This document shows, piece after piece, positions 3,402 to 32,000 of a stretch of DNA of 32,000 bases; within the stretch, counting starts at the first letter, position 1; each line of letters begins with the position of its first letter. Made by a program: the position numbers and the translations under genes. Source of the stretch: Parasynechococcus marenigrum WH 8102 (lineage in GTDB: Bacteria > Cyanobacteriota > Cyanobacteriia > PCC-6307 > Cyanobiaceae); NCBI RefSeq assembly GCF_000195975.1, contig NC_005070.1, positions 960,001 to 992,000 on the forward strand, read 5' to 3'. The notes beneath the pieces are model-generated. The model worked only from the letters and a program-made list of their open reading frames with translations. It made no database searches and was not told where the DNA came from.

Positions 3402-3414
3402 AATGATAATCATT
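3402..3414. promoter_or_regulatory. Fur-family operator (Zur-type box) in the divergent znuC/znuA intergenic region
   Basis: AATGATAATCATT is a perfect 6-1-6 palindrome and is identical to the central 13 nt of the classical 19-bp Fur box GATAATGATAATCATTATC. It lies in the 92-bp spacer between znuC (start 3336, minus strand) and znuA (start 3429, plus strand). This is the only AT-rich patch there. Confidence 0.65.
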
Positions 3415-3428
3415 CTCATGCGAGTGTC

Positions 3429-13035: not shown

Positions 13036-13238
13036 TGCCCTGATCCTTTCCTCTGCAGAATCACTGCGTTAATGGGGAGCATGGTGGCTGGAGCTGGTGT
13101 GAATCCTGCTGATCAGCGCTGGCCTTGGTGGCCGCTGCTGCCATTTAGCTACCAGTTACGGGAACAGGTCTGAGGGCCTTGTCCCTGAGTTGTCCCTGGA
13201 ATTTTGTGCAAGTGGGCTGGATTGTGGGCAAGTGAGTT
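13036..13238 (+). repeat. Boundary repeat copy B (full segment plus shared arm); contains a 33-codon relic ORF at 13072-13173
   Basis: 13036-13142 align nearly base for base with 31893-32000 (..CAGAATCACTGC.TT.ATGGGGAGCATGGTGGC.GGAGCTGG.GTGAATCCTGC.GATCAGCGCTGG....TGGCCGCTGCTGCC). 13143-13238 align with copy A 11152-11246. The reading frame MGSMVAGAGVNPADQRWPWWPLLP continues only 9 codons further to a TGA. Confidence 0.8.
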
Positions 13239-13909: not shown

Positions 13910-13978
13910 TGCGAAGTCAATGTTGTCGAGTTGAATTTCAGTGCCACTGGGTAAATTGGAGAGGTCGATAATGAAGGC

Positions 13979-16900: not shown

Positions 16901-19900
16901 GTAGGTGACAGATTCGAAAGCCGCCTTGTAGTTCGCGAGGCTGTCGGAACCGGTGAGGGTGAGGACGCCTGTGGATGCATTCCAGGAGCCCGTGATTGCG
17001 GAGGTATCGGAGAAGGCGAGGACATCTTCTGCGGATTGGAAACCAGAGGAGATGGAGACGGTGGCCGATTCGATGTTGGAGTCGTCGGCATCGGTGATGG
17101 TGAGGGAGGAGTCGATGATTGTGGCGCCATTGCCTTCTGAGAAGGCGAGAGTGGCTGAGGCACCGGCGATGACGGGAGCGTCGTTAACAGCAGCGACGCT
17201 GATGGTGGAGGTCACCGCAGAAGAATTGGTGTCGCCGTCATTGACGACCCAGGAGATGATGCGATTGGAGGTATTGGGTGTATCGGACGTGTTGTTGTAG
17301 GTGACGGATTCCAGAGCCGCCTTGTAATTGGCAAGGGTGCCGGAACCGGTGAGGGTGAGGACGCCTGTGGATGCATTCCAGGAGCCTGAAATTGAGGAGG
17401 TATCTAAGAAGGCGAGGACATCTTCTGCGGATTGGAAACCTGAGGAGATGGAGACGGTGGCCGATTCGATGTTGGTGTCATCGGCATCGGTGATGGTGAG
17501 GGAAGAGTCGATTGGGGTAGCGCCATCCTCTTCTGAGAAGGCGAGAGTGGCTGAAGCTCCAGAGATGACGGGAGCGTTATTAACGGCCGTGACGGTGATG
17601 GTGGAGGTCACCGCAGAAGAGTTGGTATCGCCATCATTGACAACCCAGGAAATGGTGCGATCGGCGGTGTTGGGATTATCTGATGTGTTGTTGTAGGTGA
17701 CAGATTCGAAAGCCGCCTTGTAGTTCGCGAGGCTGTCGGAACCGGTGAGGGTGAGGACGCCTGTGGATGCATTCCAGGAGCCCATGATTGCGGAGGTATC
17801 GGAGAAGGCGAGGACATCTTCTGCGGATTGGAAACCAGAGGAGATGGAGACGGTGGCCGATTCGATGTTGGAGTCGTCGGCATCGGTGATGGTGAGGGAG
17901 GAGTCGATGATTGTGGCGCCATTGCCTTCTGAGAAGGCGAGAGTGGCTGAGGCACCGGCGATGACGGGAGCGTCGTTAACAGCAGCGACGCTGATGGTGG
18001 AGGTCACCGCAGAAGAATTGGTGTCGCCGTCATTGACGACCCAGGAGATGATGCGATTGGAGGTATTGGGTGTATCGGACGTGTTGTTGTAGGTGACGGA
18101 TTCCAGAGCCGCCTTGTAATTGGCAAGGGTGCCGGAACCGGTGAGGGTGAGGACGCCTGTGGATGCATCCCAGGAACCTGTGATTGCGGAGGTATCTAAG
18201 AAAGCGAGGACATCTTCTGTGGATTGGAAACCAGAGGAGATGGTGATGGTGGCCGATTCGATGTTGGAGTCATCGGCATCGGTGATGGTGAGGGAAGAGT
18301 CGATTGGGGTAGCGCCATCCTCTTCTGAGAAGGCGAGAGTGGCTGAAGCTCCAGAGATGACGGGAGCGTCGTTAACAGCAGCGACGCTGATGGTGGAGGT
18401 CACCGCAGAAGAATTGGTGTCACCGTCATTGACGACCCAGGAGATGATGCGATTGGAGGTATTGGGGTTATCGGACGTGTTGTTGTAAGTGACGGATTCG
18501 AGAGCCGCTTTGTAGTTCGCGAGGCTGTCGGAACCGGTAAGGGTGAGGACGCCTGTGGATGCATTCCAGGAGCCTGAAATTGAGGAGGTATTGGAGAAGG
18601 CGAGGACATCTTCTGCGGATTGGAAACCAGAGGAGATGGAGACGGTGGCCGATTCGATGTTGGTGTCATCGGCATCGGTGATGGTGAGGGAGGAATCAAT
18701 AACAGTGGCGCCATTGCCTTCTGTGAAAGCAAGGGTGCTGCCGGCACCGGTGATTGTGGGTGAGTCATTAACAGCGGTGACGGCCGTGGAAAGGCTGAGG
18801 GTTGCCGCGGAGATATCTGTGGTGTTGCCGTTGGTTGAGACATCAATGGTGGAGGCGTTGGTGGAGGCGTTGGCACGAGCGGATCTTCCCGCGAAGCCAG
18901 CCGCGAAAGCCGGCGCGGAAGAGGTGCCGGTGTTGTGGAAGAAAACAGTGTTGCCCCAGCGGTCGCCAATGAAAGCATCGAGAAGTCCGTCGCCATCGAT
19001 GTCCGCGAAGACCGGTGCGGCCGCTAGGCCAACATTGCTGATCCCAAAGGGATTGGCAGTGGAATCGTCAGTGAAGTCCGGCGCGGCCGAGGTGCCGGTG
19101 TTGTTGAAGAAAGCAGTGGTGCCGTCGGTGCCGCCAATAAAAGCATCGAGATCACCGTCGCCATCGATATCAACAAAGTCCGGCGCGGCGCGGGTGCCAA
19201 CATCGCTGATCCCGAAGGCACTGGTGGTGGAACCGCCAGAGAAGTCGGGAGCGGCCGAGGTACCGGTGTTTAGGAAGAAAACGGTTGTGCCGTTGATTTG
19301 GCCAATGAAGGCATCGAGATCACCGTCAGCATCGATGTCCGCGAAGACCGGAGTGGAGCGGTCGCCAACATCTGCAAGCCCGAAGGGATTGGTGGTGGAA
19401 CCGCCAGAGAAGTCGGGAGCGGCCGAGGTGCCGGTGTTTAGGAAGAAAACGGTGTTGCCGACTGAGTTGCCAATGAAGGCATCGAGATCACCGTCGCCAT
19501 CGATATCTACAAAGTCCGGAGAGGCGTAGAAGCCAACATCTGCAAGTCCGAAGGGATTGGTGGTGGAACCGCCAGAGAAGTCGGGAGCGTCCGAGGTGCC
19601 GTTGTTTTGGAAGAAAACAGTGTTGCCGTGGTTGTTGCCAATGAAGGCATCGAGATCACCGTCGCCATCGATGTCTACAAAGTCCGGAGCGATGTAGTTG
19701 GCAGCATCTGCAAGCCCGAAGGGATTGATCGATGGGGATGAGGCCGCAGGGATGCCGGCTGAGTTATCAATCAGCCGAGTGGTGAGTGCTCCGGGCGTGC
19801 CGCTGAAGTCGGCAGCGGGAAGAAAGCGGAGCTTGGCGTCTGTGGTGAGATAAAGCGCGGTGGCATCGGCCAGTCCTGTGGTGGCAATGGCGGTCCAGTT

Positions 19901-20671
19901 GCTGCCGTCATCAGTGGAGTATTGCCAGGCGCCTTGTGATGCGGTGGCGGCATTGGCGGTGATGGCGATGCCAGCGAGGGTGTCGCTATCGACATCGGAG
20001 AACGAGGAGGAAAACAGATTGGCAACGGTTTCACCGGCTGGATCAGTGCTCTCTTCTGAGATGGCGGCGAGGGATGGGCTGCCGCTGGCAACGGGTGCTC
20101 CATTGAGCTGAGCCTGCCAGGCCTGGCGTCGTGCCGGTTCGACGGGTAGAGCCGGCGATGCTGCTGCGCTGCTCGCGTTTCTAGTCGCAAGAGTCCAATG
20201 GGAGCTGCCATCCTCGTGGCAACCGAGGGTGTTGGCTGTGCTCCAAATCGTGGTTCCGGTGAGCTCTTCTAAAAGGGCGATGAAGTTGTGATCAGCGCCA
20301 GCGCGGCAACTCCACAGGGCCAGGTTGCTGAGCTCCCAGTTGGCGAGGTTTTGGGCGTTGGCCAGTAGATAGGCGCTGTTGATTCGGTTGTCGCCCAGGT
20401 GGAGTTCGCCTGGGCTGCCATGGCTCACCCAATGCAGGGTGTCCACCGGCTGGCCCAGCGTTCGGCGCTCGGCCAGAGCACGGCTCACGGTTTCTAGGGG
20501 CAGCTCCTGGCCATCGAGCCAGAGCACCAGTGCTTCTGTTGCCGTGAGCAGTTTGCGGATTTGAGGACACGCGCCGTCCGCAACAATCAATTCACTCGCT
20601 TTGGCTGCGGTGAAAGAGGTAAACTTGCCTGAGTCCACCAGGGAAAAGCTGCTGAACACAACTTTATTCAA
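13979..20671 (-). CDS. Giant repeat-rich cell-surface protein: DUF4347-like N-terminus, two cadherin-like modules, 5+5 FG-GAP/VCBS calcium-binding repeats, six 132-aa VNDAP-delimited Ig/cadherin-like repeats, acidic Thr/Ser-rich tail
   Basis: 2230-aa ORF. The N-terminal block LHWVSHGSPGELHLGD...LALWSCRAGAD resembles DUF4347. F(V/A)DIDGDGDLDAFIGN...TVFF.NTGTS motifs occur ten times. Six near-identical 132-aa units start with AVN(D/N)AP. GC content is visibly lower than in the core genes to the left. The start is uncertain (TTG 20671 per the track; GTG 20659 is also possible). Confidence 0.85.
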   Translation of the reverse strand: MNKVVFSSFSLVDSGKFTSFTAAKASELIVADGACPQIRKLLTATEALVLWLDGQELPLETVSRALAERRTLGQPVDTLHWVSHGSPGELHLGDNRINSAYLLANAQNLANWELSNLALWSCRAGADHNFIALLEELTGTTIWSTANTLGCHEDGSSHWTLATRNASSAAASPALPVEPARRQAWQAQLNGAPVASGSPSLAAISEESTDPAGETVANLFSSSFSDVDSDTLAGIAITANAATASQGAWQYSTDDGSNWTAIATTGLADATALYLTTDAKLRFLPAADFSGTPGALTTRLIDNSAGIPAASSPSINPFGLADAANYIAPDFVDIDGDGDLDAFIGNNHGNTVFFQNNGTSDAPDFSGGSTTNPFGLADVGFYASPDFVDIDGDGDLDAFIGNSVGNTVFFLNTGTSAAPDFSGGSTTNPFGLADVGDRSTPVFADIDADGDLDAFIGQINGTTVFFLNTGTSAAPDFSGGSTTSAFGISDVGTRAAPDFVDIDGDGDLDAFIGGTDGTTAFFNNTGTSAAPDFTDDSTANPFGISNVGLAAAPVFADIDGDGLLDAFIGDRWGNTVFFHNTGTSSAPAFAAGFAGRSARANASTNASTIDVSTNGNTTDISAATLSLSTAVTAVNDSPTITGAGSTLAFTEGNGATVIDSSLTITDADDTNIESATVSISSGFQSAEDVLAFSNTSSISGSWNASTGVLTLTGSDSLANYKAALESVTYNNTSDNPNTSNRIISWVVNDGDTNSSAVTSTISVAAVNDAPVISGASATLAFSEEDGATPIDSSLTITDADDSNIESATITISSGFQSTEDVLAFLDTSAITGSWDASTGVLTLTGSGTLANYKAALESVTYNNTSDTPNTSNRIISWVVNDGDTNSSAVTSTISVAAVNDAPVIAGASATLAFSEGNGATIIDSSLTITDADDSNIESATVSISSGFQSAEDVLAFSDTSAIMGSWNASTGVLTLTGSDSLANYKAAFESVTYNNTSDNPNTADRTISWVVNDGDTNSSAVTSTITVTAVNNAPVISGASATLAFSEEDGATPIDSSLTITDADDTNIESATVSISSGFQSAEDVLAFLDTSSISGSWNASTGVLTLTGSGTLANYKAALESVTYNNTSDTPNTSNRIISWVVNDGDTNSSAVTSTISVAAVNDAPVIAGASATLAFSEGNGATIIDSSLTITDADDSNIESATVSISSGFQSAEDVLAFSDTSAITGSWNASTGVLTLTGSDSLANYKAAFESVTYNNTSDNPNTADRTISWVVNDGDTNSSAVTSTITVTAVNNAPVISGASATLAFSEEDGATPIDSSLTITDADDTNIESATVSISSGFQSAEDVLAFLDTSSISGSWNASTGVLTLTGSDSLANYKAALESVTYNNTSDNPNTADRTISWLVNDGDTDSSAVTSTITVTAVNDAPVTSGSPSLAAISEDSTDPVGDTVANLFSSSFSDVDGDSLVGIAITANAATASQGAWQYSTDDGSNWTAIATTGLADATALYLTTDAKLRFLPAADFSGTPGALTTRLIDNSAGIPAASSPSINPFGISDVGSNAAPVFADIDADGDLDAFIGNYDGNTVFFQNNGTSAVPDFSRGSTTNPFGISAVSGSGRYEARPDFVDIDGDGDLDAFIGNRGYRTFGDTLFFLNTGTSAAPDFSGGSTTNPFGLEKFGYYVAPEFVDIDGDGDLDAFIGNNDGNTVFFQNTGTSTAPDFSAGSTTNPFGISDVGDRSNPDFADIDGDGDLDALIGDIRGLTVFFQNTGTSAAPDFSGGSTTNPFGISDVGSRSAPDFADIDADGDLDAFIGNNDGNTVYFNNTGTSAAPAFTAGFAGSGPDRADASTVDVSTNGNTTDISAATLSLSTAVTVQVTDDDNNNETQVISLTVNAADDIVADSFSLNEDATLTYNVLSNDSFDGSHAISAISQGSNGSVEIVDADAGTLKYTPNEHFNGSDSFTYTVTSGGVTETATVSVTINQQNDAGSFGGDTSTSGAEGVTITGTLSFTDAADGDSTPNFTVSSAATSGTASINATTGAWTYTPNADFNGSDSFTVEVTDGDGNKETQTISLTIDEAVEDESGLIIIASTSSATDDETSDSGDDSQTFTNTSSTQTGIATLVENTASNDNLVTVTLPPGVSITSEGSADAQSSEEAQESLTESIQQLNSETETTDDLIGNVNNFINQLPDSTQVDVRTIVPTTTSTNLEQPIVFTGSSGSSTGDDQT
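16004..16388 (-). repeat. Distal copy of a ~385-nt intragenic segmental duplication (partner at 19715-20099)
   Basis: Sequence from CCCGAAGGGATTGATCGATGGGGATGAGGCCGCAGGG onward reads identically by eye for roughly 260 nt at both positions (offset 3711 nt), then diverges by scattered substitutions. Both copies encode ...SPSLAAISE.STDP...AWQYSTDDGSNWTAIATTGLADATALYLTTDAKLRFLPAADFSGTPGALTTRLIDNSAGIPAASSPSINPFG. Confidence 0.85.
16390..18780 (-). repeat. Six tandem 396-nt coding repeats organised as a 792-nt higher-order repeat
   Basis: Unit boundaries (GTTAACAGC / ATTAACGGC motifs encoding AVND/AVNN) recur about every 396 nt. Shadow ORFs in the track recur with an exact 792-nt offset (16953 vs 17745, 16816 vs 17608, 17328 vs 18120) and differ by one residue or none (17328 vs 18120 by a few). 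Confidence 0.9.
19715..20099 (-). repeat. Proximal copy of the intragenic segmental duplication (partner at 16004-16388)
   Basis: See partner entry. Each copy is followed, in the protein direction, by a block of five FG-GAP-type repeats. Confidence 0.85.
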
Positions 20672-20770: not shown

Positions 20771-23557
20771 TCATCCATTCAACGCAGCAACCAGGCTGCT
20801 GACCCAGAGTCGTTGTTGAAACAGCGGCAGCTCCTGGGGGTCGCTGTGCAGCTGGGTTCTGAGTTGAGCGATGGCGCCTGGAGTGGTGGCCAGCTCAATC
20901 GCTTTTTGTTGATAAGCCTCTGGTGTTGTGGTGATCAACTGCGGTTGATGAACGGCATTGCAAAGGCTGGCGCCCATGCGGGCGCAGAAGCGATTCCCGG
21001 CGATGGTGATCAAGGGAAGGCCGGCATTGAGCGCCAGCACGCCGATCGCACCGGCATTGAAGCCGGCAGTGTCGAGAAACAGATCGGCGCAGGCCATGGC
21101 AGCGATGAAACGCTGCACCGGCTTCTGGTAGGGAGCTGCCACGAGGCGATGAGGATCGATGCCGCGTTTCTGCGCCTGGGCCTGAAGGCTCTGCAGCGCC
21201 TTGGGTTTCACCGCCAGCCAGAGCAAGCTGCCAGGAACCGCCTCCAGGATCGTCATCCAGCTGGAGAAGATGCCGGCAGTGATCTTGTCCCCCCTGTTGA
21301 AGCAACAGAACACAACTGCCTCATCGGGTAGCCCGAAGCTGCTGCGGCTGATGCCAGCCATGGGCTGGCGCCAGCGACTAGCGAAGGTGTGGGGTAGCCG
21401 CCATACCTGTTCGGGGTAATTGACTTCCTGCTCAGCAGGAATCAACGCTGCATCGGCAATGATTCCATCCACGTAGTAAGAGCCCTGGCTGCTGGGAAAG
21501 CCGAGGTAATTCAGAACCGTGGGCGCCGGGCGGGCGCAGGCGATGGCTGGTCTGGAGAAGGTGGTGAGTCCGGTGAGATCGATCAGCACATCGAGCTCAT
21601 CGGCTCGGATCTGATCAATGGCGTTGGTGTCGTTCAGGTGGTGCAGATCACAAAAGTGATTTGCCGAGCTGCGGTATCGCTCAGTCAGCTTGTCTTGAAT
21701 TGGGCTGGTGCTGTAGGCGTAGGTGCACGCTTGGTTGGGATCGTGGGCCTCGAACAGCCCCTCCAGCAGCAGCCCCATCGCATGGGTACGGAAATCGGCC
21801 GACAAATATCCGATCCTTAATGGTCGTCGCTCCCCATGGACTGCCGGCAGTCGCGGATGGTGATCCTCAGGCGGGCAATGGCCATTGGCCAGCACCCAGC
21901 GGTCCAGTTCCTGATGGTGCAGCGCCAGGGGGAGTGGCAGTGTCACCAAGCCAAACGGTGGAAGCGGCTGGTGAACGGGGGTGCCTGAATCAATGCTTGC
22001 AGCACCCCGTTCATGCAGCTGCTGGATGATGCGGTTGAGTTGAACGTCAAGCGTCTCCCATTGGCAGAGTGCCTGACAGGCGTAGATCTCCAGCAGTAGC
22101 AGCTCCAAGCGCTGTGGCTCCTGCTGCAAGCCCTGTCGGCACAAGGCGAGGGATGCTTCCAACTCACCCATGAATTGCAGGATCTCGGCTTTGCGTTGCA
22201 ACGCCGCGATCTGCTCGGGCTGGTGCTTCAGCAAGGCATTCACTGCTTTGAGAGCAGCTTCCGGCTGGCCGGCTTCCAGCAACAGGGTGGCTTGGGCGAG
22301 TGCGCAGGCGGAATCGGATGGATCAAGCAGCAATCCGTTGTGCAGTGCGTTGAACGCTTTTCGTTTGTCTCCGCGTTGGACCAGCAGGTGAGCGAGGCGG
22401 TGCCACAGGCCCACAGCCTTGGGTTGTTGGCCGAGGCCATGGGTGGCCGACCGCAGCAGCGATTCGGCATCGTCAAGGGCCTGACACTGGACAAGACCAT
22501 CGGCGAGAAGACCGATGCTCCCCAGGTTGTTGGGCTGAAGCGCCAACAGGTTTTCCAGGGCTTCTCTGGCCTTGGCGAGATGTCCCTTCTGTTGGTGCAG
22601 CAATGCCAAATTGCGCCAACCATCAGCGGCGCCCGGCAACTGTTCGGTGAGCTGCTCCAGGGTGGTGATTGCGGCGTCGATCTGTCCCTGGCGGCGCTGA
22701 CTGTTGGCCCACTGCAGCCAGCTCCACAGGTGATCGGGTGCCTGGGTCACGGCTTGGGCAAAAGCGATTTCTGCCTCGGCGTAGCGGCTGGAGCGGTAGG
22801 CGATGCGGCCCTGCTGAAAGGCAACTGGCGTTTGGCTTTGGTCGCCTGTGGTTGGAGGAGCGCTGTTGGTGTTGCTGTTGGGTTCATAGAAGGGCTGTTG
22901 CCACTTCTCGCAGAAGCGTTCCGCTTCTTCGCGCCAAGCCGCACTGTCGTAGTCGCCGCCACTGGCGTGGATGCAATCCAGCCGGATCACACCGATGGAG
23001 AGCCCCTGGCGGCGGGCGTTGCGGCAGAGATCGAGGTCGTGCAAATGAAAGTGAAACCGGGGATCGAAACCAACCCCGTGATCCAGCAGCTGTTGGCGTT
23101 GCACGGCGATCAGCACGCCATCAATCAGCTGCACCGGCGCGTTGCTGATCCCAAACACGTCTTTGCGTTTGCTCGAGGCCGTGAGTGTGGTGATGGCTCC
23201 CCGCAGGTAGGGGAAGTCCCAGCCATTTCCATTGGGACGCCAATGCCAACTCAGGTGTCCTTGATCGCGGCTGTTGCCGCAAAGGCCGGCAATCGCAAAC
23301 CGCTCCAGCTGCGGACGCAGCAGCGGCTCCAAGGGTTCAGGCGGCAGGGCCAGATCGTCGTGGCAGAACAGCAGGATCTCCTCGCTGCAGATTTGGAGGG
23401 CCTGGTTGTAAAGCTCGGGCAACCCTGTGCTGTTGTTGGTGTGGATCGTGCGGGGCAGATCGGCGTGGGCAGGGTGTTGCAGCGATTGCCCCAGCAGGCT
23501 CTGGGCTGGGAAGGCCGCGTCATTCAGGCGGCTGGCGCTGATCAGGCGCAGGCTCAT
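20771..23557 (-). CDS. Three-part protein: N-terminal GT2-like glycosyltransferase, central TPR repeats, C-terminal GT41 (OGT/SPINDLY-like, COG3914-type) domain
   Basis: N-terminus has LLFCHDDL (DxD-like) and FHFHLHDLDLC, as in Glyco_tranf_2_5-type enzymes. The middle holds several 34-aa TPR-like units (AEIAFAQAVTQAPDH..., DAAITTLEQLTEQLPG..., AREALENLLALQPNN...). The C-terminal LRIGYLSADFRTHAMGLLLEGLFEAHD... is the block I associate with GT41 C-terminal domains. ATGA overlap with the upstream gene at 23554-23557. Confidence 0.75.
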   Translation of the reverse strand: MSLRLISASRLNDAAFPAQSLLGQSLQHPAHADLPRTIHTNNSTGLPELYNQALQICSEEILLFCHDDLALPPEPLEPLLRPQLERFAIAGLCGNSRDQGHLSWHWRPNGNGWDFPYLRGAITTLTASSKRKDVFGISNAPVQLIDGVLIAVQRQQLLDHGVGFDPRFHFHLHDLDLCRNARRQGLSIGVIRLDCIHASGGDYDSAAWREEAERFCEKWQQPFYEPNSNTNSAPPTTGDQSQTPVAFQQGRIAYRSSRYAEAEIAFAQAVTQAPDHLWSWLQWANSQRRQGQIDAAITTLEQLTEQLPGAADGWRNLALLHQQKGHLAKAREALENLLALQPNNLGSIGLLADGLVQCQALDDAESLLRSATHGLGQQPKAVGLWHRLAHLLVQRGDKRKAFNALHNGLLLDPSDSACALAQATLLLEAGQPEAALKAVNALLKHQPEQIAALQRKAEILQFMGELEASLALCRQGLQQEPQRLELLLLEIYACQALCQWETLDVQLNRIIQQLHERGAASIDSGTPVHQPLPPFGLVTLPLPLALHHQELDRWVLANGHCPPEDHHPRLPAVHGERRPLRIGYLSADFRTHAMGLLLEGLFEAHDPNQACTYAYSTSPIQDKLTERYRSSANHFCDLHHLNDTNAIDQIRADELDVLIDLTGLTTFSRPAIACARPAPTVLNYLGFPSSQGSYYVDGIIADAALIPAEQEVNYPEQVWRLPHTFASRWRQPMAGISRSSFGLPDEAVVFCCFNRGDKITAGIFSSWMTILEAVPGSLLWLAVKPKALQSLQAQAQKRGIDPHRLVAAPYQKPVQRFIAAMACADLFLDTAGFNAGAIGVLALNAGLPLITIAGNRFCARMGASLCNAVHQPQLITTTPEAYQQKAIELATTPGAIAQLRTQLHSDPQELPLFQQRLWVSSLVAALNG

Positions 23558-25572
23558 CGTTGCTGAGCTCCGGCGGTCTTCAGGGTGAGTTGGCTAGAGC
23601 GGGCCGACGTCACCGATTTGAGGTGTGCTCCGAGATGACGATCCACCAGGCGCAGCATCGCCTGGCTGTGGGGTGCCACCGCCGCGCGCGCAATGGGAAT
23701 GCCGGCAGCGTGCTGTTGGCGGAAGGCATGGACGAGCAGCGTTAACGCCTGGCCGCGGGGGCGGTGGCCTTTGGCCACAAACAGCGAACTGATGCGGGTG
23801 GCGTTGGCGCTGGTGCGATCCACCAACACCCATCCCACGACGTTGCCGTGGTGCAGCAGCGCCAGCGAGGCCTGGGCTTCCAGTTGGCTGCTCTGCATGG
23901 CTGCGGTGAGGTTGTCTCCAGCCGGAAACTGCGCTGCGACGTCGGCGTAGTCGGCGCGCCAGGGCACCAGTTGATAGCCCGCAGGGAAGAGAAAGCGTTC
24001 GGGCCAGTTCATCGAGGCGAGTTGTGCGGCCTGGCCCTCCAGCAGCAGAAAGGTCTGCCGTGGCGGCGACCAGCCGAGCCGTGGTAGCAGGCGATCCAGT
24101 GGGCCGGGCTGGCGATGGGGAGCCTGATAACTCACCGAGAGACTTGTCTGACTCTGCTGCGTGAGAAATACGCTGAGGTGGGCGATCAAACGGGTGCCGA
24201 TGCCCTGGCGCCGCTGGGGTGGGCTGACACAGAGCGAGACGAGACGTGCATTGCCCTCTGGTGTGCACTCCGCCAGAGCCAGACCCACCAGGGTGCCGTT
24301 CTGGTTGGCGGCGATCCCCAGCAGTTCGCCCTTGAGCTTGCGCCACGCAGCCGAACCTGGTGCCAGGGAGGGATAGGTGAGGGACGCGAAGGGGGCGAGG
24401 GTGGCTTCTGTGAGCTGGAAGACCCGCTGGTAGTGAACGGCGGTGCCGTCTGCGGGGGTGGGCTGGGGCAGGCCAAGGCGCTCCACTGCCGGGCCCTGGT
24501 GGGGTGTGCCGCTGGGGATGGAGGGTTTGATCCGCACCAGGTTGTCCTGCTGGGGCAGTTTCACCAGGCAGTCGATGGCGTCATCGACCAGGCCAAGGGC
24601 CTTGGGTTGCCGGCAGTTCTCCAGAACGGCCAGATCGAAGAGCTCGTCGATTGGTTCCGGTAGATCGAGGCTGTGCAGCACGTTGCCGCTGGCGAGATCA
24701 ATCACGCGAATGCCGCAGCATCCCTTGGGCTGGCCACTGGTCTGCAAGCTCTCCTCCAGGGGCAGCCCGGTGAACTGGGGCGAGCGCAGCTTGGACAGCC
24801 CCACCACGGCGCAGCCACCTGCGAAGGCCAGCCCCCGCACGAAGCCCGGCAAGGTGCAGAGCGGCTGGAAGCGCTCCTGCTCGATCCATCCCAGCTCGCC
24901 GGTGCCGGAATTGAGCAGCCAAAGCTTGTCTTGGTACCAGCGGGGTGAGTGGGGCATGGTGAGCCCCCTGGTGGTGATGGAGCCGGTGGGGATGTGCACC
25001 ACCACACCGCCTTCCTGGCGCGTGTTGCGCCAACTGGTGGGTGTGTTGCCGGCACTGCATGCTGTGGCCCAGGTGATCTCGCCGTTCTTGAGGGCGACGC
25101 CATTGAGGTGGCAGCGGTCTTCCGGTTTGAGGGCATCGATGAAGGGCGGCTGCCACACCGGCCGGAAGCTGCAGCCCGGTGTGAGCTCCGCCAGACAACT
25201 GAACACCGTGTTCACAAACAGCGGTGCCCCCTCGGCGGTGAGCACGAGTTCGTGGGCATTCACCTCGCCGGTGAGGAAGCTGGCCGCAGGCGTGTAAAGG
25301 CGATCGGCACCGTCATGGTGCTGGCCTGGTGCGAGCAGGTTGTCGAAACGCCAGAGATGGGAGCGGCCCGCCATCCAGAGGCTTTGACCGCTGGTGAACA
25401 ATCCCATCGGGCGGTCATAGAGCCGCTCATGAACGCGGAGGGTCTGACTGTGATCCACGCCAAGGAAGATCAGCCGGTTGGCGCGGTAGGTGGAGAGGGC
25501 CAGGGAGATGCCCTGTTGGCTCAGCCAGGTTGCAAGTTCCGGGTTGAAGCTGGCTGGGGTCTGCAGGGTCAC
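23554..25572 (-). CDS. Fusion protein: TIGR03032/DUF4915-like N-terminal domain plus two GNAT acetyltransferase-like domains
   Basis: The N-terminal ISLALSTYRANRLIFLGVD...RPMGLF...LWRFDNLL matches my recollection of the uncharacterised TIGR03032 family. The C-terminal third has two acetyl-CoA-binding-type motifs (VSPPQRRQGIGTRLI and VAKGHRPRGQALTLL). Confidence 0.65.
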   Translation of the reverse strand: MTLQTPASFNPELATWLSQQGISLALSTYRANRLIFLGVDHSQTLRVHERLYDRPMGLFTSGQSLWMAGRSHLWRFDNLLAPGQHHDGADRLYTPAASFLTGEVNAHELVLTAEGAPLFVNTVFSCLAELTPGCSFRPVWQPPFIDALKPEDRCHLNGVALKNGEITWATACSAGNTPTSWRNTRQEGGVVVHIPTGSITTRGLTMPHSPRWYQDKLWLLNSGTGELGWIEQERFQPLCTLPGFVRGLAFAGGCAVVGLSKLRSPQFTGLPLEESLQTSGQPKGCCGIRVIDLASGNVLHSLDLPEPIDELFDLAVLENCRQPKALGLVDDAIDCLVKLPQQDNLVRIKPSIPSGTPHQGPAVERLGLPQPTPADGTAVHYQRVFQLTEATLAPFASLTYPSLAPGSAAWRKLKGELLGIAANQNGTLVGLALAECTPEGNARLVSLCVSPPQRRQGIGTRLIAHLSVFLTQQSQTSLSVSYQAPHRQPGPLDRLLPRLGWSPPRQTFLLLEGQAAQLASMNWPERFLFPAGYQLVPWRADYADVAAQFPAGDNLTAAMQSSQLEAQASLALLHHGNVVGWVLVDRTSANATRISSLFVAKGHRPRGQALTLLVHAFRQQHAAGIPIARAAVAPHSQAMLRLVDRHLGAHLKSVTSARSSQLTLKTAGAQQR

Positions 25573-25629
25573 GTGGCTTTGAAGCGTGTTAGCGGGTGAC
25601 GGGTGTGGAGATCAGACTGATCGGTTGGC

Positions 25630-26361
25630 TCAATTTGCGTTGTAGATGGCTTTCTGTTCCCAGAGCGCGTTGTGGTCATTGGTGCCGATGGCTCCCATTT
25701 GCTCAAGGGTTTGGCGGAATCCTTGTCTGCTGGTTGGTTTGTAAAAACCTGCGATCTGGCCGTTTGGTAACACCATGGCGCGGTTCTTGATTTCGTGCTG
25801 CGGGCTGAGCTCGATGAAGTCTCCAAAGACGGTGGAGCTGGCAACTCCTTCTTCGCAGATGGCACGGCCCCAGACATTTGGGCCCGTTGGGAAAAATGGT
25901 GTGTAGCCGTAGTAGTTGCTTTCGCAGTTGTGCGTGATGATGTCGATCGCCCGTCGCAAGACAGGGTGGCCTGCTTGTGCATAAAACAAACCGTTAGCGA
26001 CGGACCAAGAGGCATAGTGGGTCAGCCTTGGGTTTTCTCTGAACGCAGCAAGTTTGATTCGAGGCTCAAACTGAACACCTGGAAAAGGGCAGTAAAAGCC
26101 AATATCGAAATACCAACCTCCGACGGCATAAACAATGCAAAGTCTCGCTAAATCTGATTTGTAGGCATATGGAATCAGCTTGTTGTATGCAGCACTCACG
26201 CGGCTGTCAAAGTGTTCATTCATCAGGGCCTGGATGTCCCTGTCGCCATAAAGAACATGCGTTAAGTGAGCAAAAGCTCGCCTTACGCTGGCGATGTACC
26301 GCTGCAGCAGCGCAGGCGGCTCAGCGTTGTTGTCGGAGAGATAGATCTGCGTGACTTGCAT
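25630..26361 (-). CDS. Glycosyltransferase with a DXD sugar-binding region (GT32 / Gly_transf_sug-like)
   Basis: 243 aa. LIPYAYKSDLARLCIVYAVGGWYFDIG resembles the conserved A/K-SD-x-x-R...GG-x-Y-x-D core of OCH1/GT32-type transferases. Same strand as the neighbouring transferase genes and tightly spaced with them. Confidence 0.6.
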   Translation of the reverse strand: MQVTQIYLSDNNAEPPALLQRYIASVRRAFAHLTHVLYGDRDIQALMNEHFDSRVSAAYNKLIPYAYKSDLARLCIVYAVGGWYFDIGFYCPFPGVQFEPRIKLAAFRENPRLTHYASWSVANGLFYAQAGHPVLRRAIDIITHNCESNYYGYTPFFPTGPNVWGRAICEEGVASSTVFGDFIELSPQHEIKNRAMVLPNGQIAGFYKPTSRQGFRQTLEQMGAIGTNDHNALWEQKAIYNAN

Positions 26362-26377
26362 GGCGTCGCGTTAGCAC

Positions 26378-28096
26378 TCAGGAATGTCTGGCGAGATGGT
26401 GTTGCTGGCGTAGGGCCGGCAGGAAACTGGGATCGATTGCAAGGGCGCGCAGGCAGGCGGCCTGCGCCTCTGGCCACTGGCCCTGACGGCTGAGCAGGAT
26501 CGACTGGTTGGTGTGGCCGTGCACGTGATCGGGATGGGCATGCAGCAGTCGCTCCAGGCAGAACGCGGCCTGCTCACTGTTTCCCTGGCGTTGCAGCAGC
26601 GTGGCCAGCTGCAGCAGGGCGCCGTTGTGGCTGGGGAGTTGATCGAGAATCGCGCGGTAGTGCCGCTCTGCAGCGGCTGAATTGCCCCGGCGTTCGAGCA
26701 GGCGCGCCGCAGCAAAGGTTCGTTGATGCGGCCGCTCCAGCCCGCGCCGGGGCCGCAGCGCCAGGGGATCGAGCTGATGAGCAGTGCGGAATGCCCGGCT
26801 GGCCTGTTCTGACTGGCCCTGTTTTTCGGCGCACACCCCCAGGAAGGTGTGGGCAGGGGCATGGTCAGGTTCATTCTGAATCGCCGCTTGGAGGTGTTCT
26901 GTTGCTGCCGACCAGTGGCCGCCCTGCAGCGCCTTGAGGCCTTTGGCGAAGCCCTGATCAGCATTGCTGCTCAGTTTCAGGCGGCAGTGGCGCTCGCCGA
27001 TCCGTTTCCATCCGGGGATTTGCGTGAGCGTCCGCTCGCGCTGCTGCTCAAGCGGAGCTGGCAAGGGGCCCGGCACGGAATTGCTCTGTTGGAGCAGGCC
27101 TATATAAAACGTCTGGCGTTCAACCACGGCGGTTTGGATGTCGCGGTTGGTGCTCACGTAGGCATGGGCACGGCGGGCCTGTTCCAGCCGTTGCTCTGGG
27201 TTCTGCACCAGGCCTTCGAGCTGCTGGATCATCGCCTCTGGACTGTCAAACAGGCTCGCTAGATCAGTTGCAGCGAGGGCCTGGTAGGGGGTTTCGTTCT
27301 GGAGCACGGCCGCTGCACCGGCCGCCGCATACTCCAGGAATTTCACATCGGAGCGGCAACGGTTGTAGTCCGTGGGCAGCAGAGGAGCCAGGCCGATGTG
27401 CAGGCTGTTCAGCCAGCTGCGGTAGTGATCAAGGCTTCCTGGCTTGCGGATCAGCACGTGCTCCTCGGCCCTTCCCTCGAAGACAGCTGCCAGAGATGGA
27501 TCAGCCATGATCTCGAGCTGAACATCGCTCTGCTGAGGCAACCACTGCAGCAGCGCTGGTGCGATGTGGCGCAGGTCCTCTAAGTGGCCGATCGATCCAC
27601 CCCAGCCGATCCGCAGCGGCCGGCCATCAGCACGATGTTTCAGCTCATCGAAGCCGGGGATGGCATCAAGGTGATTCGGCAAGACAACGGCCGAGCGGGC
27701 CTGTTGCTGCAGCCGGTCAGCCAGTCCGCCGGAGCTGAACTGGCAGGCATCAGCGTTGTGGATCAGGCCGTGGAAGAGCTTCTGGCCACGGGGATCATGC
27801 CAGGAGCCGGCAGCAGGATTCCAAGCCTGCACATCGGGGAGATAGTCATTGACTTCCACCACGGTGGGCCGGCCCAGCAGGCGGCGTTGGCGGATCAGCC
27901 GGAAGGCCTCCAGATCCAGGGTCATCGTGAGCACGAGCAGGTCGGCGGCCAGGGCGGCGGCGTCGCGGTAACGGGCATCTGGATGCACCTCGAACACCTC
28001 CACTCCCGGCAGGGCGGCCAGGGCGGCAGCGGGCTGATGCATGCGGTAATGCTGATCACCGCTGCTACCGAAGCTGCCGATCAAAACAATGCGCAT
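26378..28096 (-). CDS. GT-B-like glycosyltransferase domain fused to C-terminal TPR repeats
   Basis: 572 aa. The N-terminal ~340 aa have a Rossmann-like alternation and ...RSDVKFLEYAAAGAAAV..., reminiscent of GT-B C-terminal domains. The C-terminal ~200 aa are TPR-like (ATEHLQAAIQNEPDHAPAH..., AERHYRAILDQLPSHNGAL..., AAFCLERLLHAHPDHVHGH...). First gene of the minus-strand cluster. Confidence 0.65.
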   Translation of the reverse strand: MRIVLIGSFGSSGDQHYRMHQPAAALAALPGVEVFEVHPDARYRDAAALAADLLVLTMTLDLEAFRLIRQRRLLGRPTVVEVNDYLPDVQAWNPAAGSWHDPRGQKLFHGLIHNADACQFSSGGLADRLQQQARSAVVLPNHLDAIPGFDELKHRADGRPLRIGWGGSIGHLEDLRHIAPALLQWLPQQSDVQLEIMADPSLAAVFEGRAEEHVLIRKPGSLDHYRSWLNSLHIGLAPLLPTDYNRCRSDVKFLEYAAAGAAAVLQNETPYQALAATDLASLFDSPEAMIQQLEGLVQNPEQRLEQARRAHAYVSTNRDIQTAVVERQTFYIGLLQQSNSVPGPLPAPLEQQRERTLTQIPGWKRIGERHCRLKLSSNADQGFAKGLKALQGGHWSAATEHLQAAIQNEPDHAPAHTFLGVCAEKQGQSEQASRAFRTAHQLDPLALRPRRGLERPHQRTFAAARLLERRGNSAAAERHYRAILDQLPSHNGALLQLATLLQRQGNSEQAAFCLERLLHAHPDHVHGHTNQSILLSRQGQWPEAQAACLRALAIDPSFLPALRQQHHLARHS

Positions 28097-28337
28097 GGTG
28101 CTCAGCTAGGGGTGGCGTTGATCACGGTTTGCAGGGGTGCAGGCCAGCCGGGTTCGATTTGGCTTGAGCCGGTGGACCTGTCGTTGGGCGTGGTTAATGC
28201 CGGCGACAACAGCCTCGATGTCGCAACCCAGCTCAAGGATGGTGCGGGCTTGAGTCGGGATGCGCTCAAGGGGGGGCAGTGCGTGAAGGCACTTCTCGCG
28301 GCTCAAAGACACTCTGATGCCAATCAGCAGAAGCGCC

Positions 28338-28442
28338 TGCCCACGATCCATTCCTCATCAGAATCACTGCATCGATAGTGAGCGTTGTTGCTGGTAAGTA
28401 TGAATCCTGGAGATCAATGCTGATGTTTCTTGGCGTTGCTAC
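28338..28442 (+). repeat. Boundary repeat copy D (full length, decayed)
   Basis: TGCCCACGATCCATTCCTCATCAGAATCACTGCATCGATAGTGAGCGTTGTTGCTGG...GAATCCTGGAGATCAATGCTGATGTTTCTTGGCGTTGCTAC aligns along its whole length with copy C (31893-32000). It carries many substitutions and in-frame stops. Confidence 0.6.
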
Positions 28443-28787
28443 TAATTAATTGTATTCACTAATAGACAGCTTGAAATTCTTGTGCCTGATGTGTTTCTTT
28501 TGTTCTGTGTGCCTGTTTAATTCATGATGAAGCTCGACATGATGGCCTTCTATGAGTTTGCGGCTCTCTGAGCTAGCAAAGAAATTAATGGTTGCACAGT
28601 AAATTCTGCTTTTCTTGGGCGCAAGTTGATATTTGGGATTCAAATTAATTATGTCTTTCAGACTTCCAACTATCTGTGGATCTTTCAATAAATTGCAGGC
28701 TCGGCTTTGCGGGCAGCCAGTGGCTTCGGCAAAGCAGGCACTACCACCCTCGTTTCTTCTAGCTTTGTTGTAGGAAAGGTTCAACAC

Positions 28788-29504
28788 ATGTTTTCTGGCT
28801 GGACCTCGATGCAACGTGATCGGCAGCCCGAAGTCATGGATCAGCCGGGGCTCGATCCAGCCGAGCACGACCGAGCCCTTCAAGGTCTTCGTCGTATCAA
28901 TGGAATCAGTCGCTGTGTGCCAGGGCTGTTTCGTCACGTAGAGGCGCTCGCAGGTGAGAGTCCAGCCACTCAGCTGAGCGTGCTTGAGCTGGCTTGCGGA
29001 GGTGGCGATACGGCGATTGAGCTCGCTGCGCTCGCCCGTGGACGCGATTTGGATGTATTGGTTCAAGCCTGCGATCTGAATCCTGAAGCGGTGCGTCTCG
29101 CCCGCCGCAATGTGGCCAGATCAGACAGCAACGTTGGTGTGTTTGTTGCTGATGCTTTGGACCCGTCCGAATCCAAACAATTTGACGTGGTGTACTGCAC
29201 CCTTTTTGTTCACCATCTCGATCCACCCGATGTGGTGCGCCTACTCAAAGGGATGACAGCTAGGGCTCGTCGACTTGTGATTGTCGATGATCTAATCCGC
29301 AGCCGTCTTGGGTATTCCTTGGCTTGGATGGGTACACGACTGCTGAGTCGATCCTGGGTGGTTCATCACGATGGTCCACTGTCGGTGAAGGGAGCTTTTA
29401 CTCCTTCAGAGATCCTGGACCTCGCCTCTCAAGCTGGATTGCACGATTGTGTCTTGGAACGGACCTGGCCCGAGCGCTACCGGCTCTGCTGGAGACCCCA
29501 CTGA
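28788..29504 (+). CDS. Class I SAM-dependent methyltransferase
   Basis: A start at ATG 28788 (or 28809) gives ...RDRQPEVMDQPGLDPAEHDRALQGLRRIN, followed by motif I VLELACGGGD and DVVYCTLFVHHL. The track ORF start (28707) lies in non-coding-looking AT-rich DNA. The stop TGA at 29502-29504 is 1 nt before the next gene. Confidence 0.8.
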   Translation: MFSGWTSMQRDRQPEVMDQPGLDPAEHDRALQGLRRINGISRCVPGLFRHVEALAGESPATQLSVLELACGGGDTAIELAALARGRDLDVLVQACDLNPEAVRLARRNVARSDSNVGVFVADALDPSESKQFDVVYCTLFVHHLDPPDVVRLLKGMTARARRLVIVDDLIRSRLGYSLAWMGTRLLSRSWVVHHDGPLSVKGAFTPSEILDLASQAGLHDCVLERTWPERYRLCWRPH

Positions 29505-29505
29505 C

Positions 29506-30651: not shown

Positions 30652-30654
30652 ACC

Positions 30655-31892: not shown

Positions 31893-32000
31893 TGCCTTGC
31901 CCCTTTCCTTCAGCAGAATCACTGCATTGATGGGGAGCATGGTGGCCGGAGCTGGGGTGAATCCTGCAGATCAGCGCTGGGGTTTCTGGCCGCTGCTGCC
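31893..32000 (+). repeat. Boundary repeat copy C, presumably the functional copy
   Basis: Best-conserved copy of the segment. It runs to the window edge with an open reading frame. Confidence 0.75.
31930..32000 (+). CDS. 5' end of an unidentified gene continuing beyond the window (MGSMVAGAGVNPADQRWGFWPLLP...)
   Basis: ATG at 31930 (a second ATG at 31939) opens a frame with no stop up to nt 32000. The same 5' end is found as truncated relics at 13072-13173 and, decayed, at 28338-28442. The W-x-x-WPL(L/V)P motif reminds me of DUF4336-type cyanobacterial proteins, but that is memory only. Confidence 0.4.
   Translation, partial: MGSMVAGAGVNPADQRWGFWPLL

Follow-up and report, generated by a model that had tools for sequence, protein, structure and literature searches.

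Four co-directional genes on the minus strand of Synechococcus (Parasynechococcus) WH8102 probably encode a dedicated module that modifies the adjoining FG-GAP/cadherin/RTX protein, a predicted type I secretion substrate, in the cytoplasm (a probability of roughly 0.6). The cluster is one version of a widespread, previously undescribed enzyme set that lies beside one kind of surface protein in many bacteria.

Organization of the cluster and its presumed substrate

In the window, the whole 32,000-nt stretch of DNA that was analysed, the four ORFs run in the order gene 1, gene 2, gene 3 and gene 4, and are followed by the adhesin gene; all are on the minus strand, as are the domains described below. 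Gene 1 (26378-28096, 572 aa) and gene 2 (25630-26361, 243 aa) are separated by 16 nt (26362-26377), and gene 2 and gene 3 (23554-25572, 672 aa) by 57 nt. The stop codon of gene 3 shares a 4-nt ATGA overlap with the start of gene 4 (20771-23557, 928 aa) at positions 23554-23557, and a further 99 nt separate gene 4 from the adhesin ORF. The same four genes are found in independent gene calls on metagenome contigs that carry the same sequence. The tight packing described in the first-pass annotation, with its ATGA overlap and 16-nt gap, is therefore borne out. The proposal that the module is bounded by repeats held only in part. An intergenic repeat of ~95 nt, to which no strand is assigned, is located upstream of the cluster (28351-28445), and sequence comparison reveals other copies at 13048-13140 and 31906-32000, the former being ~75-78% identical to the upstream copy. 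The repeat thus exists on both sides, but the third copy in the window marks it as a dispersed intergenic element rather than a specific module boundary. It has no significant fold, Rfam family or tRNA match.

The presumed substrate is a surface protein of 2230 aa (13979-20671) in which Pfam identifies DUF4347, seven FG-GAP_3 stretches, Big_9 and cadherin-like domains. A first FG-GAP array (18896-19789) is followed by ~5.8 copies of a 132-aa repeat (16378-18691) and by a second FG-GAP array (15161-16078), and these arrays share 44-56% identity with DUF4915-adjacent proteins in other phyla. The protein is composed of 26% Ser+Thr and 0.7% Lys. Sequence prediction found neither a transmembrane segment nor a signal peptide in the adhesin or in any of the four enzymes. 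A single in-frame TAG (13979-13981) separates the adhesin from an RTX nonapeptide/C-terminal secretion-signal segment in the same frame (ORF 13280-13909, 209 aa; 13280-13981 with the TAG; HemolysinCabind, 130 bits), and the same split is called on a metagenome contig (L001). Because this stop codon precedes the RTX tail, the WH8102 adhesin may remain unexported or be in decay. Domain searches detected no T1SS ABC, MFP or OMP genes in the 32,000-nt window.

Domain architecture of the four encoded proteins

Gene 4 combines a GT2-like domain (aa 1-225, nt 22883-23557), a TPR array (aa 245-505, nt 22043-22825) and an OGT/SPY-type GT41 catalytic domain (aa 555-921, nt 20795-21895). The GT41 family (PF13844) is matched with 183.9 bits (cutoff 25, 4.9e-54), and the PDB matches are human OGT (4e-47), XcOGT (3e-46), SPINDLY (3e-35) and T. 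terrenum OGT (8e-35). The alignment to full-length OGT covers both the TPRs and the catalytic domain, the TPR array being contiguous with GT41. These alignments place the predicted catalytic domain in the OGT/SPINDLY branch, and the identical WH8102 entry at NCBI (CAE07501.1/WP_011127851.1) is named "O-linked N-acetylglucosamine transferase family protein". Equivalents of human OGT (hOGT) residues His498 and Lys842 are present (DFRTH/DFGNH and NRGDK/NQLYK aligned) and invariant in all DUF4915-linked GT41 sequences that cover those columns. The His920/Thr921/Thr922 donor-phosphate triad of hOGT is replaced by Gly/Ala/Ile, and in most DUF4915-linked homologues this position reads Gly-(Ala/Thr)-Thr. 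As a result of the replaced triad, UDP-GlcNAc cannot be assumed as the donor sugar, and both the activity and the donor of the putative GT41 enzyme are uncertain.

HMW1C-type N-glycosylation, for which the first-pass annotation had argued from the GT41 family and the N-x-S/T sequons, is not supported. A PDB-wide phmmer search gave no match to HMW1C/NGT chains even at E ≤ 10, and the protein carries a TPR array. Rather than five to six sequons per 132-aa repeat, the six repeats contain 6, 4, 4, 5, 4 and 3, and the adhesin as a whole contains 47 versus 40.4 ± 5.4 expected from composition-preserving shuffles, which is the level set by composition and not an enrichment.

Gene 3 encodes a six-bladed TIGR03032/DUF4915 β-propeller (aa 10-338, nt 24559-25545) followed by two GNAT domains (GNAT1, aa 379-515, nt 24028-24438; GNAT2, aa 530-663, nt 23584-23985). 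The TIGR03032 match spans positions 6-334 of the 335-position model (477.9 bits, cutoff 251.5, 1.5e-143), and DUF4915 scores 386.6 bits (1.2e-115). An AF2 model of the DUF4915 domain alone is all-β (pLDDT 86, pTM 0.88) and matches generic six-bladed propellers only (Kelch, NHL and YWTD; TM ≤ 0.55); the domain models as a six-bladed β-propeller without a close solved relative. In the C-terminal half, Pfam finds Acetyltransf_1 in two stretches (51.9 bits), and the full-length AF2 model matches the tandem-GNAT structures 2wpw, VipF and MshD (Foldseek, E 1e-8 to 1e-14). Both acetyl-CoA motifs of the R/Q-x-x-G-x-G/A type are intact (RRQGIG at aa 454 and RPRGQA at aa 604), and the PDB sequences nearest to GNAT1 are RimI and Naa10/ARD1.

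The TIGR03032/DUF4915 family comprises ~1,900 clusters at 50% identity (E ≤ 1e-10), and no mention of it was found in the literature searched. Its members keep invariant polar His, Arg, Cys, Asp and Ser residues across phyla in the motifs DRCHLNG, MPHSPRW and TGDxxxH, which suggests catalysis. Tentatively, the family may represent new enzymes that install an undescribed modification on "NPFGL-type" FG-GAP repeats of type-I-secreted proteins, a reading that is possible but doubtful; DUF4915 may then work by itself in many bacteria and in partnership with GNAT and OGT-type glycosyltransferases in cyanobacteria. Sulfation is a candidate for the modification, since APS kinase genes recur near DUF4915 (8 of ~80 loci, ~10%). 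The same genes, as a hint of small-molecule/sulfur chemistry, would also fit a non-covalent role for the DUF4915-GNAT protein as a cytoplasmic chaperone, secretion adaptor, antitoxin-like partner or maker of a small molecule or ligand bound by the secreted FG-GAP propeller. Such a role is consistent with the resemblance of DUF4915 to interaction propellers and with the many DUF4915 genes that stand alone without GNAT or glycosyltransferase, but it is quite unlikely given the invariant polar motifs and fusion partners that are transferases (GNAT, GT2 and GT41) rather than chaperone or secretion domains.

The remaining components are less sharply defined. The GT2-like domain of gene 4 has an HDD motif at aa 67 and is borderline for Glycos_transf_2 (23.4 bits, cutoff 23.3) and below cutoff for Glyco_tranf_2_5 (20.6 bits, cutoff 27). 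Gene 1 encodes a GT-B-like part (aa 1-340, nt 27077-28096; Glyco_trans_1_2, 28.2 bits, cutoff 25) and a C-terminal TPR array (aa 374-562, nt 26411-26977) that matches multiple TPR families; for its N-terminal 350 aa, the PDB contains no sequence relative at E ≤ 1. The small GT32-like protein of gene 2 matches Gly_transf_sug (29.6 bits, cutoff 23) and weakly Caps_synth, has no sequence relative in a PDB search, and carries D-I-G (YFDIGF) at the position expected for DXD. Of the initial domain calls, profile HMMs thus place GT41, TPR, DUF4915 and GNAT above their cutoffs, while GT2 is borderline and GT32 lacks the canonical DXD.

Synteny and gene fusions across genomes

To place the cluster in a wider context, 80 genome loci were compared, one per species and not phylogenetically independent. 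A co-directional FG-GAP/RTX gene lies directly downstream of 15/18 DUF4915+GNAT genes and of 14/48 stand-alone DUF4915 genes, versus a background rate of 9/413 among genes more than two positions away (Fisher p = 5e-19 and 1e-9, respectively, for loci that are not independent by phylogeny). The other 34 of the 48 stand-alone genes have no recognisable surface-protein gene directly downstream. In a Pfam census of neighbours, FG-GAP ranks first downstream (26/66), followed by RTX (7), and is present upstream in 6/61. This arrangement, DUF4915 with or without GNAT followed by an FG-GAP/RTX/cadherin gene, is observed in cyanobacteria, in Beta-, Gamma- and Alphaproteobacteria, in Desulfobacterota and in Chloroflexota. 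The spacing between DUF4915-GNAT and its partner is tight and co-directional, often 10-60 nt. The partner proteins form a distinct FG-GAP subfamily (44-56% identity across phyla) that often starts M-S/T-D-P-x-F...TNPFGL; among eight partners from six genera, FG-GAP_3 is present in 8/8 and RTX and/or cadherin/Big_9 in 7/8. As a negative control, none of 73 generic FG-GAP loci from metagenomes has DUF4915 nearby. For close FG-GAP relatives on metagenome contigs, a DUF4915 gene is present in only 3/7, and for two of the four without it, 10 kb of upstream sequence holds none. The first-pass annotation would have been refuted if most copies of the gene set had no large surface protein nearby; these counts do not refute it.

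The overlapping genes 3 and 4 of the window correspond to a single fused polypeptide elsewhere. DUF4915-GNAT-(GT2)-TPR-GT41 is one ORF in Nostoc (L016, twice), Dolichospermum (L012) and Dapis (L014), and Planktothrix (L080) has a GT41-DUF4915 fusion. In the L014 and L016 fusions, the GT2 at the same position is strongly matched (1e-30) and has no BLAST similarity to the GT2-like domain of gene 4. Among 50 long DUF4915 cluster representatives, TPR is found in 26, GT41 in 20, GNAT in 18 and GT2 in 7. These results agree with the initial idea of a dedicated modification unit in that the set behaves as a unit tied to a large surface protein; the part of that idea which did not stand is HMW1C-type N-glycosylation.

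In picocyanobacteria, the cluster is conserved in varied flanking contexts (L083, L084, L085 and L003), and Cyanobium genomes hold GT-B-TPR, TPR-GT41, DUF4915-2xGNAT and FG-GAP protein genes together in differing chromosomal contexts. Gene 1 has homologues at the same position in two Cyanobium loci (L083 and L084) and in part in L003, and gene 2 has homologues in L003 (58% identity) and L085. Because the GT32-like and GT-B-TPR genes were found only in picocyanobacterial loci among those examined, they look like accessory parts and not the core.

An alternative is that the cluster makes a polysaccharide of the cell surface (EPS, LPS or an S-layer-anchoring glycan), with TPRs that scaffold a polysaccharide machine and an adhesin that is adjacent through a shared variable surface island. 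GT2, GT32 (with its weak Caps_synth match) and GT-B are folds commonly met in polysaccharide synthesis, the TPR matches include BcsC, PgaA and PrsT-type proteins, and the region is island-like, with a dispersed repeat at its flanks and differences between genomes. However, the window contains no flippase, polymerase, ABC exporter, undecaprenyl-phosphate transferase or sugar-nucleotide synthesis gene, and all four enzymes lack transmembrane segments. In addition, every solved GT41 match (OGT, XcOGT, SPINDLY and TtOGT) belongs to the OGT/SPINDLY protein-glycosyltransferase group, and chance co-location does not explain why the DUF4915-GNAT core, with or without GT41, tracks FG-GAP/RTX genes across phyla. 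Polysaccharide synthesis is therefore very unlikely.

Proposed mechanism, related systems and significance

We infer that the adjoining adhesin is the substrate and that the linkage is O-linked, and we likewise infer the order of the steps and a role for the propeller as either a docking module or an enzyme. In the proposed mechanism, the adhesin, which lacks a signal peptide, would stay unfolded in the low-calcium cytoplasm, where the TPR arrays and/or the TIGR03032 β-propeller would bind it. The OGT/SPINDLY-type GT41 domain would put a sugar on Ser/Thr hydroxyls, and the GT2-like domain, the GT32-like protein and the GT-B-TPR protein may add or extend sugars. The tandem GNAT would acetylate or acylate an amine of either the protein or an amino sugar, and the modified chain would be exported via the C-terminal RTX signal.

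The architecture of gene 4 is similar to that of OGT, XcOGT, SPINDLY and Thermobaculum OGT (PMC2556091, PMC9715652, PMC4683255) in that a TPR superhelix runs directly into a GT-B GT41 domain and the hOGT His498 and Lys842 equivalents are kept. It differs in its N-terminal GT2-like domain, its altered triad, its translational coupling to DUF4915-GNAT (a fusion elsewhere) and its genomic tie to one substrate family. The same kinship raises the alternative that the TPR-GT41 protein, with helpers, is a general O-glycosyltransferase with many substrates (pilins, SwmA, regulatory proteins), of which the adhesin is at most one. Its closest relatives are broad-specificity OGT/SPY enzymes. The S. elongatus TPR-GT41 Ogt, a cyanobacterial member, is needed to glycosylate an exported surface protein, pilin, and affects several other processes (PMC9306852); an Ogt of this kind may therefore not need to be encoded next to the protein that it selects. 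SwmA of WH8102 is a glycoprotein (PMC3034196) whose transferase was not found named in the literature searched. This alternative leaves unexplained both the GT41 fusion with DUF4915-GNAT and the tight co-directional spacing of DUF4915-GNAT to one FG-GAP subfamily, and is unlikely as an account of the cluster; it is compatible with the dedicated module provided that the adhesin is its main substrate.

Compared with known systems, the dedicated module is a fresh variation on the theme of a modifying enzyme next to its adhesin. In HMW1C/HMW1 and ApNGT-type pairs (PMC3012730, PMC3983070), a soluble GT41 enzyme is likewise encoded beside a very large adhesin that is modified in the cytoplasm before export. 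In contrast to HMW1C-like NGTs, the GT41 domain of the module has no detectable similarity to solved NGTs, general Pfam/PDB searches do not indicate the NGT-type all-α domain, and its TPR array, non-enriched sequons and extra GT2, GT32, GT-B, GNAT and DUF4915 components set the module apart, as does the proposed type I (RTX) export in place of two-partner secretion. FlmG is a modular cytoplasmic O-glycosyltransferase whose N-terminal domain binds flagellin (PMC7591256). FlmG-/Maf-type enzymes resemble the module in their modularity, in the binding of a secreted substrate before export by a separate TPR-containing N-terminal domain, and in being encoded with the gene set of the substrate; they differ in catalytic family, in substrate, in flagellar T3SS export and in lacking a partner with a propeller or GNAT domain. 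RTX toxins are acylated before export, and HlyC/CyaC, an acyl-CoA/ACP-dependent transferase encoded beside hlyA/cyaA, modifies its type-I-secreted RTX protein in the cytoplasm (PMC3034196). Unlike HlyC, for which the gene 3 protein has no Pfam family match, the gene 3 GNATs are canonical Acetyltransf_1 domains nearest RimI/Naa10 and fused to a β-propeller, and the adhesin is very lysine-poor. SwmA, from the strain of the window, and oscillin are cyanobacterial calcium-binding RTX surface glycoproteins (PMC3034196), and the SwmA island contains a β-glycosyltransferase (PMC7522525); neither protein is reported as an FG-GAP protein or with TIGR03032 neighbours, and no defined modifying enzyme set for them was found in the literature searched.

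These comparisons connect the large, uncharacterised TIGR03032/DUF4915 family with OGT-type glycosyltransferases and with one particular class of secreted FG-GAP/RTX proteins. Cyanobacterial RTX surface glycoproteins such as SwmA and oscillin have been known for decades, and surface proteins of the giant-adhesin kind are implicated in grazing resistance and motility of WH8102. If the proposed function is correct, it would provide a handle on how picocyanobacterial giant adhesins get decorated. Autotransporter heptosyltransferases are a further type V example of an enzyme beside its adhesin, and the principle would then extend from type V (HMW1C) to type I secretion. WH8102 is a sequenced model strain in which swmA inactivation is reported (PMC3034196), so the hypothesis should be testable there. 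Finally, on the doubtful reading of DUF4915 as an enzyme family, it would define a new route by which bacterial surface proteins and exoproteins mature after translation, the targets of which may include the abundant secreted FG-GAP proteins of symbiotic Nostoc, presuming that these belong to the subfamily and have DUF4915 neighbours.

The transferase cluster and the adjoining adhesin gene

The four minus-strand ORFs described in the first-pass annotation are present at the coordinates it assigned, one pair separated by 16 nt and another overlapping by ATGA, and independent gene calling on metagenome contigs that carry the window sequence gives the same four genes. When searched against Pfam and NCBIfam profiles, the GT-B-TPR ORF (26378–28096, minus strand) matches Glyco_trans_1_2 (28.2 bits versus a cutoff of 25) and contains a TPR array, and the GT32-like ORF (25630–26361, minus) matches Gly_transf_sug (29.6 bits versus a cutoff of 23). 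The third ORF (23554–25572, minus) joins DUF4915 (TIGR03032, 477.9 bits versus a cutoff of 251.5) to GNAT in two stretches, and the fourth, GT2-TPR-GT41 (20771–23557, minus), encodes a 928-aa protein, identical to CAE07501.1 of WH8102, with a TPR array and a GT41 domain (183.9 bits). The domain assignments made from sequence inspection are therefore upheld for GT41, the TPRs of two proteins, DUF4915/TIGR03032, GNAT, Gly_transf_sug and Glyco_trans_1_2, while the N-terminal GT2 is borderline. Promoter and terminator scans of the cluster gave the same result as shuffled sequences and are thus uninformative on operon structure. An 81-aa ORF (28106–28351, minus), called on a matching metagenome contig and with no Pfam match on record, lies directly upstream of the GT-B-TPR gene.

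This ORF abuts an intergenic element of approximately 95 nt (core TTCCTCNNCAGAATCACTGC) that occurs three times, at 13048–13140, 28351–28445 and 31906–32000. Its copies separate the psbA region (psbA, 11755–12834), the adhesin/transferase block and the polyketide synthase operon; the outer two copies are approximately 90% alike. The direct repeat at 13048 and 28351 that had been taken to bound a module is real, but the third copy removes a module-specific boundary and marks the sequence as a dispersed intergenic element. The idea of a repeat-bounded mobile module is further weakened by the lack of a significant fold, an Rfam match or a nearby tRNA. Elsewhere in the window, which has a GC content of approximately 60%, are znuABC-like genes (1875–4349) and a three-gene operon (28809–31743, plus strand) for a SAM methyltransferase (gene call from the metagenome contig L001), an FAD-dependent oxidoreductase and a type III polyketide synthase, which we presume to resemble the alkylresorcinol/hierridin-type clusters of picocyanobacteria. 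The synthase and the ZnuA-like protein are identical to CAE07508.1 and CAE07486.1 of WH8102, respectively.

A 99-nt gap separates the GT2-TPR-GT41 gene from the 2230-aa adhesin ORF (13979–20671, minus), in which Pfam identifies DUF4347, FG-GAP_3, Big_9 and cadherin-like domains. The ORF contains 5.8 copies of a 396-nt repeat and two arrays of 168-nt FG-GAP units (15161–16078 and 18896–19789). These arrays, together with an 84-nt stretch (15049–15132 and 18775–18858; 95% identical), form an internal segmental duplication with its parts approximately 3.7 kb apart on either side of the 396-nt repeats, and metagenome assemblies of the gene (compare contigs L001 and L002) break or collapse there. 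A single in-frame TAG (13979–13981, minus; ...GDDQT*AFIIDLSNL...) lies between the adhesin ORF and a 209-aa RTX ORF in the same frame (13280–13909, minus), and the same split is called on L001. At least formally, this codon severs the body of the WH8102 adhesin from the tail for type I secretion; it could be a nonsense mutation, mark a gene split in two or be a site of readthrough. The motile WH8102 serves as a model strain, and SwmA, an RTX glycoprotein, and SwmB, a giant protein, were described in it (PMC3034196, PMC7522525). For the locus tags SYNW0984–0989, which were derived by accession arithmetic and may not be exact, nothing was found in the literature searched.

The DUF4915 propeller and its FG-GAP partners

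In an AF2 model (pLDDT 86, pTM 0.88), DUF4915 residues 1–344 fold into an all-beta propeller of six blades. Foldseek returns only generic propellers for this model at TM ≤ 0.55 (Pizza designs, Kelch, NHL, YWTD, strictosidine synthase and arylsulfate sulfotransferase), and a family profile search finds no solved sequence relative. The family comprises 1,941 cluster representatives at E ≤ 1e-10, and no mention of TIGR03032/DUF4915 was found in the literature searched. Diverse members have many invariant polar residues, located in DRCHLNG, MPHSPRW and TGDxxxH motifs plus several Arg, a pattern that would suit an active site better than a scaffold. The C-terminal half of the window protein is a tandem GNAT (matches to 2wpw, VipF, MshD and Eis) with intact R-x-x-G-x-G/A motifs in both halves, and, among PDB sequences, GNAT1 lies closest to RimI and Naa10, which are protein N-alpha-acetyltransferases.

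The decisive evidence is comparative synteny. One genome per species was scanned and 80 loci with DUF4915 relatives were kept; 11 loci whose DUF4915 ORF was missed by the simple ORF caller fall outside the counts. Where DUF4915 occurs with at least one GNAT and a downstream neighbour is available, a co-directional gene homologous to the FG-GAP region of the adhesin and/or to RTX follows in 15 of 18 cases, often after just 10–60 nt. Stand-alone DUF4915 genes have such a downstream homologue in 14 of 48 cases, and the background among genes more than two positions away is 9/413 (Fisher p of 5e-19 with GNAT and 1e-9 for stand-alone genes). The expected co-occurrence of the gene set with a large surface protein is thus supported. 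An unbiased Pfam census of 66 downstream neighbours likewise places FG-GAP first (26/66) and RTX second (7); upstream, six more FG-GAP proteins are found, and TPR and GT41 recur. The hosts include many cyanobacteria, Nitrosomonas, Methylobacter, Methylocucumis, Massilia, Azospirillum, Desulfamplus and an Anaerolineae MAG. On one contig binned to a Polaromonas MAG (L006), a DUF4915-2xGNAT gene 51% identical to that of the window precedes an FG-GAP gene, the arrangement of picocyanobacteria; the contig may be mis-binned cyanobacterial DNA or reflect horizontal transfer.

The FG-GAP proteins encoded beside DUF4915, here called partners, are a distinct subfamily rather than generic FG-GAP proteins. 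They share 44–56% identity with the window adhesin across phyla and the repeat unit F-F-x-N-T-G-T/S...P-x-F...T-N-P-F-G-L-x-D-V-G...P-T-F-x-D-I-D-G-D-G-D-L-D-A-F-V/I-G, in which no obvious modification site stands out, and many start M-S/T-D-P-x-F directly at the first repeat. By Pfam, FG-GAP_3 is present in 8/8 partners and RTX and/or cadherin/Big_9 in 7/8. The partner of Cyanobium sp. NIES-981 (L083:12198–15830) ends in Hint_2 in place of RTX repeats, so an RTX tail is not universal in the family. In a negative control, no DUF4915 gene lies in the available flanks of 73 generic FG-GAP metagenome loci (<36% identity). Among close relatives on metagenome contigs, DUF4915 accompanies 3/7; most of the other four lie on short contigs or were matched at a contig end, and two have 10 kb upstream and no DUF4915. 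This reciprocal scan yielded just seven informative close relatives, since its pattern, the common DxDGDGxLD loop, swamped it with generic FG-GAP proteins.

GT41 type and gene fusions

Among solved structures, the GT41 catalytic domain (aa 520–928) matches human OGT (4e-47), Xanthomonas XcOGT (3e-46), Arabidopsis SPINDLY (3e-35) and Thermobaculum OGT (8e-35), and no HMW1C/NGT chain of the PDB even at E ≤ 10. The first-pass annotation had counted five to six N-x-S/T sequons per 132-aa adhesin repeat and argued from them for HMW1C-type N-glycosylation. The repeats actually hold 6, 4, 4, 5, 4 and 3, and the 47 in the whole adhesin compare with 40.4 ± 5.4 in shuffles, as expected from its composition of 26% Ser+Thr and 7% Asn. 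With OGT/SPINDLY matches, a TPR array and no sequon enrichment, the argument for N-glycosylation falls away and the HMW1C-type reading is rejected; if anything, the evidence favours O-linked modification of a Ser/Thr-rich substrate. Equivalents of human OGT His498 and Lys842 are kept in the window GT41 and in all DUF4915-linked GT41 sequences that cover those columns. The donor-phosphate triad His920/Thr921/Thr922 is replaced by Gly/Ala/Ile in the window GT41, and the sugar donor therefore cannot be assumed.

Gene fusions link the enzymes with each other. Dolichospermum and Dapis, and Nostoc calcicola in two copies, carry DUF4915-GNAT-(GT2)-TPR-GT41 as one ORF, which places the two ATGA-coupled genes of the window in one chain, and Planktothrix has a GT41-DUF4915 fusion. 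Fifty long DUF4915 representatives contain TPR in 26, GT41 in 20, GNAT in 18 and GT2 in 7 cases. In Nostoc calcicola FACHB-3891 (L016:9938–21516), a DUF4915-GNAT-TPR-GT41 gene and a DUF4915-GNAT-GT2-TPR-GT41 gene flank one FG-GAP/cadherin/RTX gene. Cyanobium NIES-981 and Cyanobium Morenito 9A2 have GT-B-TPR, TPR-GT41, DUF4915-2xGNAT and FG-GAP genes in a row, in an order and with flanking genes unlike those of the window, and another picocyanobacterial contig has DUF4915-2xGNAT, GT32-like and GT2-TPR-GT41 genes with a transposase at the adhesin position. The GT-B-TPR and GT32-like genes occur only in the picocyanobacterial loci among those examined. These fusions and variants indicate a core of DUF4915(-GNAT) and its FG-GAP partner, often joined by TPR-GT41. 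Three rival readings are weaker: that the cluster makes a polysaccharide, that the GT41 enzyme is a general OGT acting on many substrates, and that DUF4915-GNAT is a non-covalent helper or has a small-molecule function. None of them accounts at once for the fused genes and for synteny specific to one FG-GAP subfamily.

Proposed modification before export

Signal peptides and convincing TM segments are absent from all four enzymes and from the adhesin, whose gene region includes an RTX tail. Type I systems export RTX proteins in the unfolded state, and acylation of RTX toxins takes place in the cytoplasm, ahead of export (PMC3034196). On these grounds, a dedicated pre-export modification of the adhesin by the enzyme module is proposed, at a probability of roughly 60%. 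Domain architecture and genomic associations are observed; that the adhesin is the substrate, how it would be linked, which donor serves and what the propeller does are inferred. All of the enzyme parts are predicted to work in the cytoplasm, on donors present there (nucleotide sugars, acyl-CoA). TPR arrays, the propeller or both would capture the unfolded FG-GAP protein, GT41 would place a sugar on Ser/Thr, the other transferases would lengthen or diversify it, and the GNAT would acetylate or acylate an amine on the protein or on the sugar. In addition, 8 of approximately 80 loci, from cyanobacteria and proteobacteria (L009, L019, L021, L027, L035, L056, L057 and L064), encode an APS kinase (CysC; PF01583, E 1e-58 to 1e-67) at a distance of one to three genes from DUF4915, and no sulfotransferase was found among the few neighbours scanned. 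Some forms of the system may include sulfation, or a PAPS-like donor may be used by the propeller itself.

The literature searched contains no description of the TIGR03032 propeller-GNAT core, of its fusion with an OGT-type GT41 or of the FG-GAP/RTX subfamily link across phyla, and its titles and abstracts hold nothing specific on dedicated glycosylation of T1SS adhesins. Pre-export modification has precedents in HMW1C/HMW1 (PMC3012730, PMC3983070), FlmG/flagellin (PMC7591256) and S. elongatus Ogt/pilin (PMC9306852). Finally, a dedicated cytoplasmic modifying enzyme encoded beside its secreted adhesin is a theme already known.
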